Of a stretch of DNA of 64,000 nucleotides, positions 32,869-33,792 are shown one piece after another. Under the pieces are notes generated by a model, which saw only the letters and a program-made list of their open reading frames with translations, made no database searches and was not told where the DNA came from. Position 1 is the stretch's first letter, and each line of letters opens with the position of its first letter. Both the position numbers and the translations under genes were made by a program. Source of the stretch: Trypanosoma brucei (lineage: Eukaryota); the NCBI GenBank assembly GCA_000002445.1, contig CH464491.1:352001-416000 (forward strand), in the 5' to 3' direction.

Positions 32869-33792
32869 ATGTGGAGGCCTTATACTTTGTTTGTTGTGCC
32901 CATGCGATTCGGGAGTCCGCTTCAGTTGAGGTCGCTATTTGTTTCCCGCATGCCTGGTCGTTTTGACGCCTTTTTGACACGGCGATTTGTTTCAACAGCA
33001 ACACCCGGAGGGCAGCCGATTTGTAGTGACTCTCATAATTCTGCAGCATGTCTTACGGCTGAGGAGTTCTCCAACATCGTCCCCATGTTTTTGTTGGGTC
33101 AAGCGCTACGTCAACACACTTCTAATGAGGAAAATCGTGCAGGCGCAGGTGAGTTTGTCATTACCCGCGAGGTATTCAACCGCTACTGTAGCGAAAGCCA
33201 CGTGGAAGACACGGACAAAGCTCTTCAACTCCTCTGCGAAAGCGGTGTCGTCGTTTCTATTTCTGATGGAGCGGCGGTTCATCTTCGACCGGTGCAGTTC
33301 CTTCAAATGCACAATGACGCCGCTGATGCGAGTGATGCGAAGGTGAAGACACCGTTTGAAGATTATATCCGGGCAGCACAAAACCGTTTAGCGGATGCGG
33401 AAGCGGAAGAAATGGCGATGCGGGTTGCGCTTCAACCTGCTATTGATAATGCAGCGAAGCGGCGGCGACTCTTGTGGTCGGGTGCCCTCTGCCTTATGGC
33501 GGTCCAACTTGCAGTGATCTCACGGCTAACATTTGTTGACCTTGACTGGGATATCATGGAACCTGTGTCATATTTTCTGGGCAGTGGTACATCGATCCTG
33601 TTTCTTATTTATCTTCTCAGGAATGGGCGGGTGAAGAGCTACAAGGAATATGAAGAGAAGGCAGCGGCGTCGCGTGTTCGGCTGCACGCTCCGGCAGACT
33701 TCGAGTGGAGGAAATACGATGCAGTGGTGAGACGAGTGGAGGTGGAGAAGAACATGGTGGAGCAAATGCGGAAGTGGTTTAAACATCACTGA
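32869..33792 (+). CDS. MCU: Mitochondrial calcium uniporter (MCU) family protein
   Basis: Two hydrophobic helices flank the canonical selectivity-filter motif DLDWDIMEPVSYF (compare human [10 protein letters not shown]). The N-terminus is presequence-like (MWRPYTLFVVPMRFGSPLQLRSLFVSRMPGRF). At 307 aa it is the size of kinetoplastid MCU paralogues. The track start 32836 is a GTG; the first ATG is at 32869. Confidence 0.75.
   Translation: MWRPYTLFVVPMRFGSPLQLRSLFVSRMPGRFDAFLTRRFVSTATPGGQPICSDSHNSAACLTAEEFSNIVPMFLLGQALRQHTSNEENRAGAGEFVITREVFNRYCSESHVEDTDKALQLLCESGVVVSISDGAAVHLRPVQFLQMHNDAADASDAKVKTPFEDYIRAAQNRLADAEAEEMAMRVALQPAIDNAAKRRRLLWSGALCLMAVQLAVISRLTFVDLDWDIMEPVSYFLGSGTSILFLIYLLRNGRVKSYKEYEEKAAASRVRLHAPADFEWRKYDAVVRRVEVEKNMVEQMRKWFKHH

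Follow-up and report, generated by a model that had tools for sequence, protein, structure and literature searches.

Analysis was performed on a 64,000-nucleotide stretch of the Trypanosoma brucei genome (GenBank assembly GCA_000002445.1, contig CH464491.1, positions 352,001 to 416,000 of the forward strand; hereafter the window, with coordinates counted from its first letter), and was centred on a forward-strand open reading frame (ORF) that an earlier note, made from the sequence alone, had assigned to the mitochondrial calcium uniporter (MCU) family. The ORF was intact, opening with the ATG at 32869 and closing with a TGA that ends at 33792, and encoded 307 amino acids (aa) with a calculated mass of 34.88 kDa. 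An in-frame TAA lies upstream at 32827, with no ATG between it and 32869. The program-made ORF list begins this frame earlier, at a GTG (32836); since 32869 is the first in-frame ATG past the TAA and the host is eukaryotic, the start was taken as 32869, as the earlier note had it. We consider the ORF to be the single-copy nuclear gene for TbMCU, the canonical founding subunit of the T. brucei uniporter, with a probability of about 0.97. All six frames of the 64-kb window were scanned for a second MCU-type gene, and no further W[DN]xxEPxx[YF] motif was found.

The translation matched the Pfam MCU family PF04678 with 113.4 bits against a gathering cut-off of 30.8 (E = 1.7e-32), well outside what chance would give, over residues 113–285 and profile positions 2–176 of 177. 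A sequence search of the PDB returned MCU chains only (human, C. elegans, Tribolium and fungal; best E = 3e-10) and paired ISRLTFVDLDWDIMEPVSYF with a 20-residue stretch of human MCU. The peptide DLDWDIMEPVSYF was located in the translation between two hydrophobic helices, and EEMAMRVALQPAIDNAAKRRRL and EYEEKAAASRVRL, the other peptides cited in the earlier note, were both present. Kyte–Doolittle values in 19-residue windows exceeded 1.2 at residues 199–227 and 229–251, flanking the WDIMEP motif, and the hydrophobic core of the first transmembrane helix (TM1) spans approximately residues 203–223 and includes R219. The acidic residues of the motif are D228 and E231, with D224 and D226 just before it.

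Structure was predicted with AlphaFold2 from an alignment of 20 homologues (mean predicted local distance difference test score, pLDDT, 78.5), which had been collected by word-indexed search and comprised Trypanosoma, Leishmania, Leptomonas and environmental sequences. In the model, residues 1–56 are predicted to be disordered (pLDDT below 50 at residues 1–3 and 6–56), and are followed by an alpha/beta domain (64–155), a helix (162–222), a loop (223–226), a second helix (227–252) and C-terminal helices (258–273 and 280–306). The hallmark of MCU, a transmembrane hairpin with a short loop and with WDIMEPVSY (residues 227–235) opening the second transmembrane helix (TM2), was present. Foldseek comparison with the PDB placed human MCU chains at the top with a probability of 1.00, the model being nearest to the solved human, fungal and Dictyostelium MCUs, and the similarity to solved channels was that of an MCU-family fold. 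Both the family assignment and the placing of WDIMEP between two hydrophobic helices were upheld by these results: the earlier note had held that a missing PF04678 match, or a DIME loop predicted elsewhere than between two transmembrane helices, would tell against it, and the match was obtained and the loop was predicted in that place by hydropathy and by AlphaFold2. For the coiled-coil flanks, long helices were seen at residues 162–222, 258–273 and 280–306 of what is a monomer model; published TbMCU domain schemes include a coiled-coil domain (PMC6143741, PMC7078472).

Residues 1–45 contain seven Arg/Lys and one Asp/Glu, the earliest acidic residue being D33, and residues 1–56 could not be aligned among orthologues. 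The presequence-like character given to the N-terminus in the earlier note was borne out by this composition and by the predicted disorder, and such a basic, disordered segment appears consistent with mitochondrial import. Among the TbMCUC subunits, all those other than TbMCUb have a MitoProt-predicted targeting signal and a mitochondrial localization (PMC6143741). For the N-terminal domain (NTD) predicted at residues 64–155, the nearest type was the MCU NTD of Dictyostelium discoideum (PDB 5z2h and 5z2i). On the strength of the model, we put at about even odds that the TbMCU NTD is Dictyostelium-like or winged-helix-like and not metazoan beta-grasp-like, a point possibly already in the literature; if true, the Dictyostelium-type NTD would be the older form, widespread in non-metazoan eukaryotes, and the NTD-based regulation and dimerization of human MCU would not extend to trypanosomes.

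From end to end, the ORF protein showed 100% identity to XP_828226.1 (EAN79114.1, UniProt Q387B7) of T. brucei brucei TREU927, in agreement with the kinetoplastid source proposed earlier, and the identical TREU927 protein is encoded on a contig of 5,261,801 bp. It differed at three positions from the T. b. gambiense protein, at four from that of T. b. equiperdum and at one from that of T. equiperdum, all of them N-terminal to the pore. TbMCU is designated Tb427tmp.47.0014 in Lister 427 (PMC6143741) and Tb927.11.1350 in TREU927 (PMC9799330). Tb427tmp.47.0014 is given as MCU with 307 aa and 34.8 kDa (Table 1 of PMC7078472), values with which the length and mass of the ORF product agree. Published TbMCU mutants are Q213A, V216F/P, I217F/P, F222A, Y235A, F236A, T241E and Y248A (PMC6143741, PMC7078472); the wild-type residue was found at the same number in the ORF protein in eight of eight cases, Q213, V216, I217 and F222 being the published residues of the first transmembrane helix (TMH1) and Y235, F236, T241 and Y248 those of the second (TMH2).

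The surroundings of the gene were compared in the same way. Tb427tmp.47.0022, listed as associated with ATP synthase (169 aa, 20.2 kDa; Table 1 of PMC7078472), co-purified with TbMCU carrying a tandem affinity purification (TAP) tag (PMC7078472). An ORF at 11594–12103 (+), approximately 21 kb upstream of MCU, encodes 169 aa with a mass of 20.3 kDa and matched the subunit ATPTB6 in the solved T. brucei ATP synthase over its full length (PDB 8ap6_J, E = 7e-115). This ORF fits Tb427tmp.47.0022, and the window accordingly falls in the chromosome 11 '47' segment expected for TbMCU. When ISRLTFVDLDWDIMEP was aligned to TM1 of human MCU, R219 stood opposite human R252 and D224 opposite human E257, so that the two features of the MCU type, the TM1 Arg and an acidic residue at the E257 position, were both present; the Arg is kept in MCU and replaced by W or Y in MCUb (PMC6143741).

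Length, mass, residue numbering, neighbouring gene and paralogue features together lead us to regard the ORF as canonical TbMCU, and no evidence contradicting this identity was found. In comparison with published TbMCU (Tb927.11.1350/Tb427tmp.47.0014; Huang & Docampo 2018, PMC6143741) it appeared as the same gene, with no difference detected. The earlier note had spoken of an MCU-family paralogue and asked which one it was: membership of the family stood, and on length, residues and filter the protein was not a side paralogue. Neither the gene nor its function is new to the literature, and the finding is confirmed and refined to canonical TbMCU. Three limits apply. XP_828226.1 is tied to Tb927.11.1350 by length and mass, by the numbering of the residues and by a neighbouring gene, and a literature search returned no paper linking XP_828226, Q387B7, EAN79114 and Tb11.47.0014; the separation of MCU from MCUb, MCUc and MCUd rests on published defining features and not on a phylogeny with named paralogues; and the Foldseek E-values of the monomer model were weak (best 4.6e-3, at probabilities of 1.00).

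The earlier note had also raised the residue after EPV, which is Ser in the ORF (EPVSYF, S234) and Thr in metazoans (EPVTYF), as a change that might alter conductance. S234 was invariant in all 20 kinetoplastid-type homologues, as were W227, D228, M230, E231, P232, V233, Y235, R219 and Q213; W303 was likewise invariant in this alignment and Y283 nearly so. When 1.84 billion representatives were scanned exhaustively with HMMER, 601 MCU-family members were obtained at E ≤ 0.001, of which the best 150 were combined with the earlier matches into 169 sequences; a recognizable filter was present in 165, a sample skewed towards relatives of the query. After EPx, 89 of these carry Ser and 49 Thr, the rest having Ala (11), Cys (10) or Gly (6). 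Even with that skew, such counts show that Ser is a normal state of the MCU family at this position and Thr a consensus centred on metazoans. The suggestion that the difference is significant was not sustained, a special role of Ser234 was rejected on the same counts, and residue frequencies give no reason to expect that S234 would alter conductance. It is very unlikely that the ORF is a degenerate copy, either a pseudogene or a strain variant, in which Ser for Thr alters or abolishes conductance: EPVSYF in place of the metazoan EPVTYF could be read in this way, but the frame is unbroken and its product does not differ from the reference protein, Ser is kept throughout the 20 kinetoplastid-type homologues and outnumbers every other residue in the larger sample, the filter motif given for T. 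cruzi as WDXXEPXXY leaves the position variable (PMC6727756), and published work describes TbMCU as functional and essential (PMC6143741).

The remaining alternative concerns the Ca2+-conducting partner subunits TbMCUb (Tb427.10.300, 254 aa) and the trypanosomatid-specific TbMCUc (Tb427tmp.02.1760, 249 aa) and TbMCUd (Tb427.10.2150, 214 aa). These resemble TbMCU in having PF04678, two transmembrane helices, a related filter and a place in the same complex, and differ from it in being shorter, with an overall identity of only 16–19% (PMC6143741). The filter of MCUc and MCUd is WNxxEPxTY, with Asn for the first Asp, and MCUb has W or Y for the TM1 Arg and no typical targeting signal; the MCUb and MCUd genes lie on chromosome 10 and that of TbMCUc on chromosome 11 (PMC6143741). 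A T. cruzi filter variant reads WNLVEPMTY (PMC6727756). That the ORF encodes one of these partners is scarcely credible, since the shared Pfam family and the chromosome 11 location of TbMCUc are set against a length of 307 aa and a WDIMEP filter, which separate it from MCUc and MCUd, against the same length, the chromosome 11 context, R219 and the basic N-terminus, which separate it from MCUb, and against the fit of all eight TbMCU residue numbers, the mass and the length to the ORF. Among the best 150 representatives, relatives of the MCUb, MCUc or MCUd kind, picked by a TM1 Tyr or by a filter of the WN type, were metagenome or transcriptome proteins only, with no named paralogue.

Canonical TbMCU was compared further with human MCU (PDB 6wdo, 6o58, 6k7x). 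The two share PF04678, two transmembrane helices, WDIMEP, the TM1 Arg, the acidic residue represented by D224 and the long flanking helices. Sequence similarity is confined to approximately 93 residues (TbMCU residues 172–264) covering the coiled-coil, transmembrane and pore segments, and structure-based alignments give 20–23% identity. In the human protein a Ser connected with Ru360 precedes the Trp of the filter, whereas TbMCU has D226 there (PMC6143741); trypanosomatids differ further in lacking an EMRE partner and in the hetero-oligomer reported with MCUb, MCUc and MCUd (PMC6143741). EPV(S/T)Y carries Thr in human MCU and Ser in TbMCU, and the human NTD aligns poorly with the TbMCU NTD, whose predicted form resembles that of Dictyostelium.

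A uniporter is present in trypanosomes and absent from yeast, a contrast that helped in the first identification of MCU. TbMCU is reportedly the subject of a study by Huang, Vercesi and Docampo from 2013. According to PMC6143741, its mitochondrial localization was shown by experiment, and mitochondrial Ca2+ uptake depends on it, as do growth and infectivity. In the T. brucei uniporter, TbMCU is reported to form a hetero-oligomer together with TbMCUb, TbMCUc and TbMCUd, joined by contacts between transmembrane helices and without EMRE (PMC6143741); the complex has a size of approximately 380 kDa, and TbMCU interacts with ATP synthase subunit c via V216 and I217 (both PMC6143741, PMC7078472).

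The architecture was observed here, as was the conservation of the acidic residues; the mechanism that follows is inferred from MCU structures already solved and from mutants published for the orthologue in T. cruzi. TbMCU would be imported into the inner membrane, where the TM2 helices of several subunits would pack round a central axis and line the pore. Of two stacked acidic rings, the outer would be made by D228 and the inner by E231, which would supply the high-affinity site for Ca2+; together the rings would bind and select Ca2+, and the ion would then enter the matrix down the membrane potential; D226 may add negative charge at the pore mouth. In T. cruzi MCU, Ca2+ uptake is lost when the filter Glu is mutated and lowered when the filter Asp or the Asp before it is changed (PMC6727756). 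The essential part of TbMCU in parasite bioenergetics and infectivity, and a complex that lacks EMRE and contains the parasite-specific MCUc and MCUd, are matters published for the same gene; the present outcome, in which the ORF is assigned to canonical TbMCU and Ser against Thr is taken as an ordinary polymorphism of the family, adds no new knowledge to them.

Coordinates of the gene, its parts and its neighbours are collected in the table below. Every ORF that reaches 200 aa (17 of 17 in the window) lies on the + strand, so that the 64 kb form one unidirectional polycistronic gene cluster, as expected for a trypanosomatid. Rfam at its gathering threshold gave no RNA family in the 64 kb. Upstream of the TbMCU start, the T-rich tract and the AGs that follow it plausibly form a trans-splice acceptor, which would leave a very short 5' untranslated region; this reading follows the general rule of trypanosomatid mRNA processing.

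Table 1. Position and basis of the features recorded in the window, with those of the TbMCU gene first.
Feature	Position	Strand	Basis
Complete coding sequence assigned to TbMCU, 307 aa + stop	32869..33792	+	ORF, PF04678, identity to XP_828226.1/Q387B7
Candidate trans-splicing acceptor region	32789..32854	+	polypyrimidine tract 32789–32799, then first AGs 32841 and 32853
Presequence-like N-terminal region, aa 1–56	32869..33036	+	basic, disordered, unalignable among orthologues
N-terminal alpha/beta domain, aa 64–155	33058..33333	+	predicted; possibly Dictyostelium MCU-NTD/winged-helix-like type
Long helix, aa 162–222: first coiled-coil-type segment and TM1	33352..33537	+	AlphaFold2 helix, hydropathy 199–227
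WDIMEP selectivity filter, aa 227–232	33547..33564	+	position in ORF; same as human WDIMEP
TM2 pore-lining helix, aa 227–252, filter motif at its start	33547..33624	+	AlphaFold2 helix, hydropathy 229–251
C-terminal helices, aa 258–273 and 280–306: junction and second coiled-coil-type segment	33640..33786	+	AlphaFold2, pLDDT 85–97
FAD/NAD oxidoreductase	22891–23868	+	neighbour ORF
Complex I 20 kDa subunit homologue, 202 aa	24811–25419	+	PF01058 (PSST/NDUFS7-type), E = 3e-24
1156-aa protein	27621–31091	+	partial kinase match, sub-threshold: 20 bits vs 31.7, C-lobe positions 150–254
C2HC zinc-finger protein, 568 aa	35193–36899	+	two C2HC fingers, PF13913, E = 6e-13
Beta-helix repeat protein, 2998 aa	39341–48337	+	nine right-handed beta-helix repeats, PF13229, E = 8e-107; NosD-like PF05048

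The ATPTB6 ORF encodes a kinetoplastid-specific ATP synthase subunit without a Pfam family, and the complex I 20 kDa homologue is the third gene of the mitochondrial inner-membrane system in the window, at most about 21 kb from MCU. Functional clustering of MCU, ATPTB6 and complex I was considered and rejected, two to three mitochondrial genes in approximately 20 being near background by a rough, uncomputed estimate; their proximity is probably a coincidence within the polycistron. The 1156-aa protein may, from its partial match, be a divergent kinase or pseudokinase. Directly downstream of MCU, the C2HC protein is of low complexity and contains a poly-Thr run. The architecture of the beta-helix repeat protein is more familiar in bacterial surface and periplasmic proteins.

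At 16001–18000 the G+C content falls to 0.30 with a negative GC skew. Around it lies an AT-rich gap of approximately 4.5 kb in which no ORF that starts with ATG reaches 120 aa; the gap is unusually long for the window, and a tandem repeat, (TATATATT)n, occupies 17239–17291 inside this AT-rich intergenic stretch.
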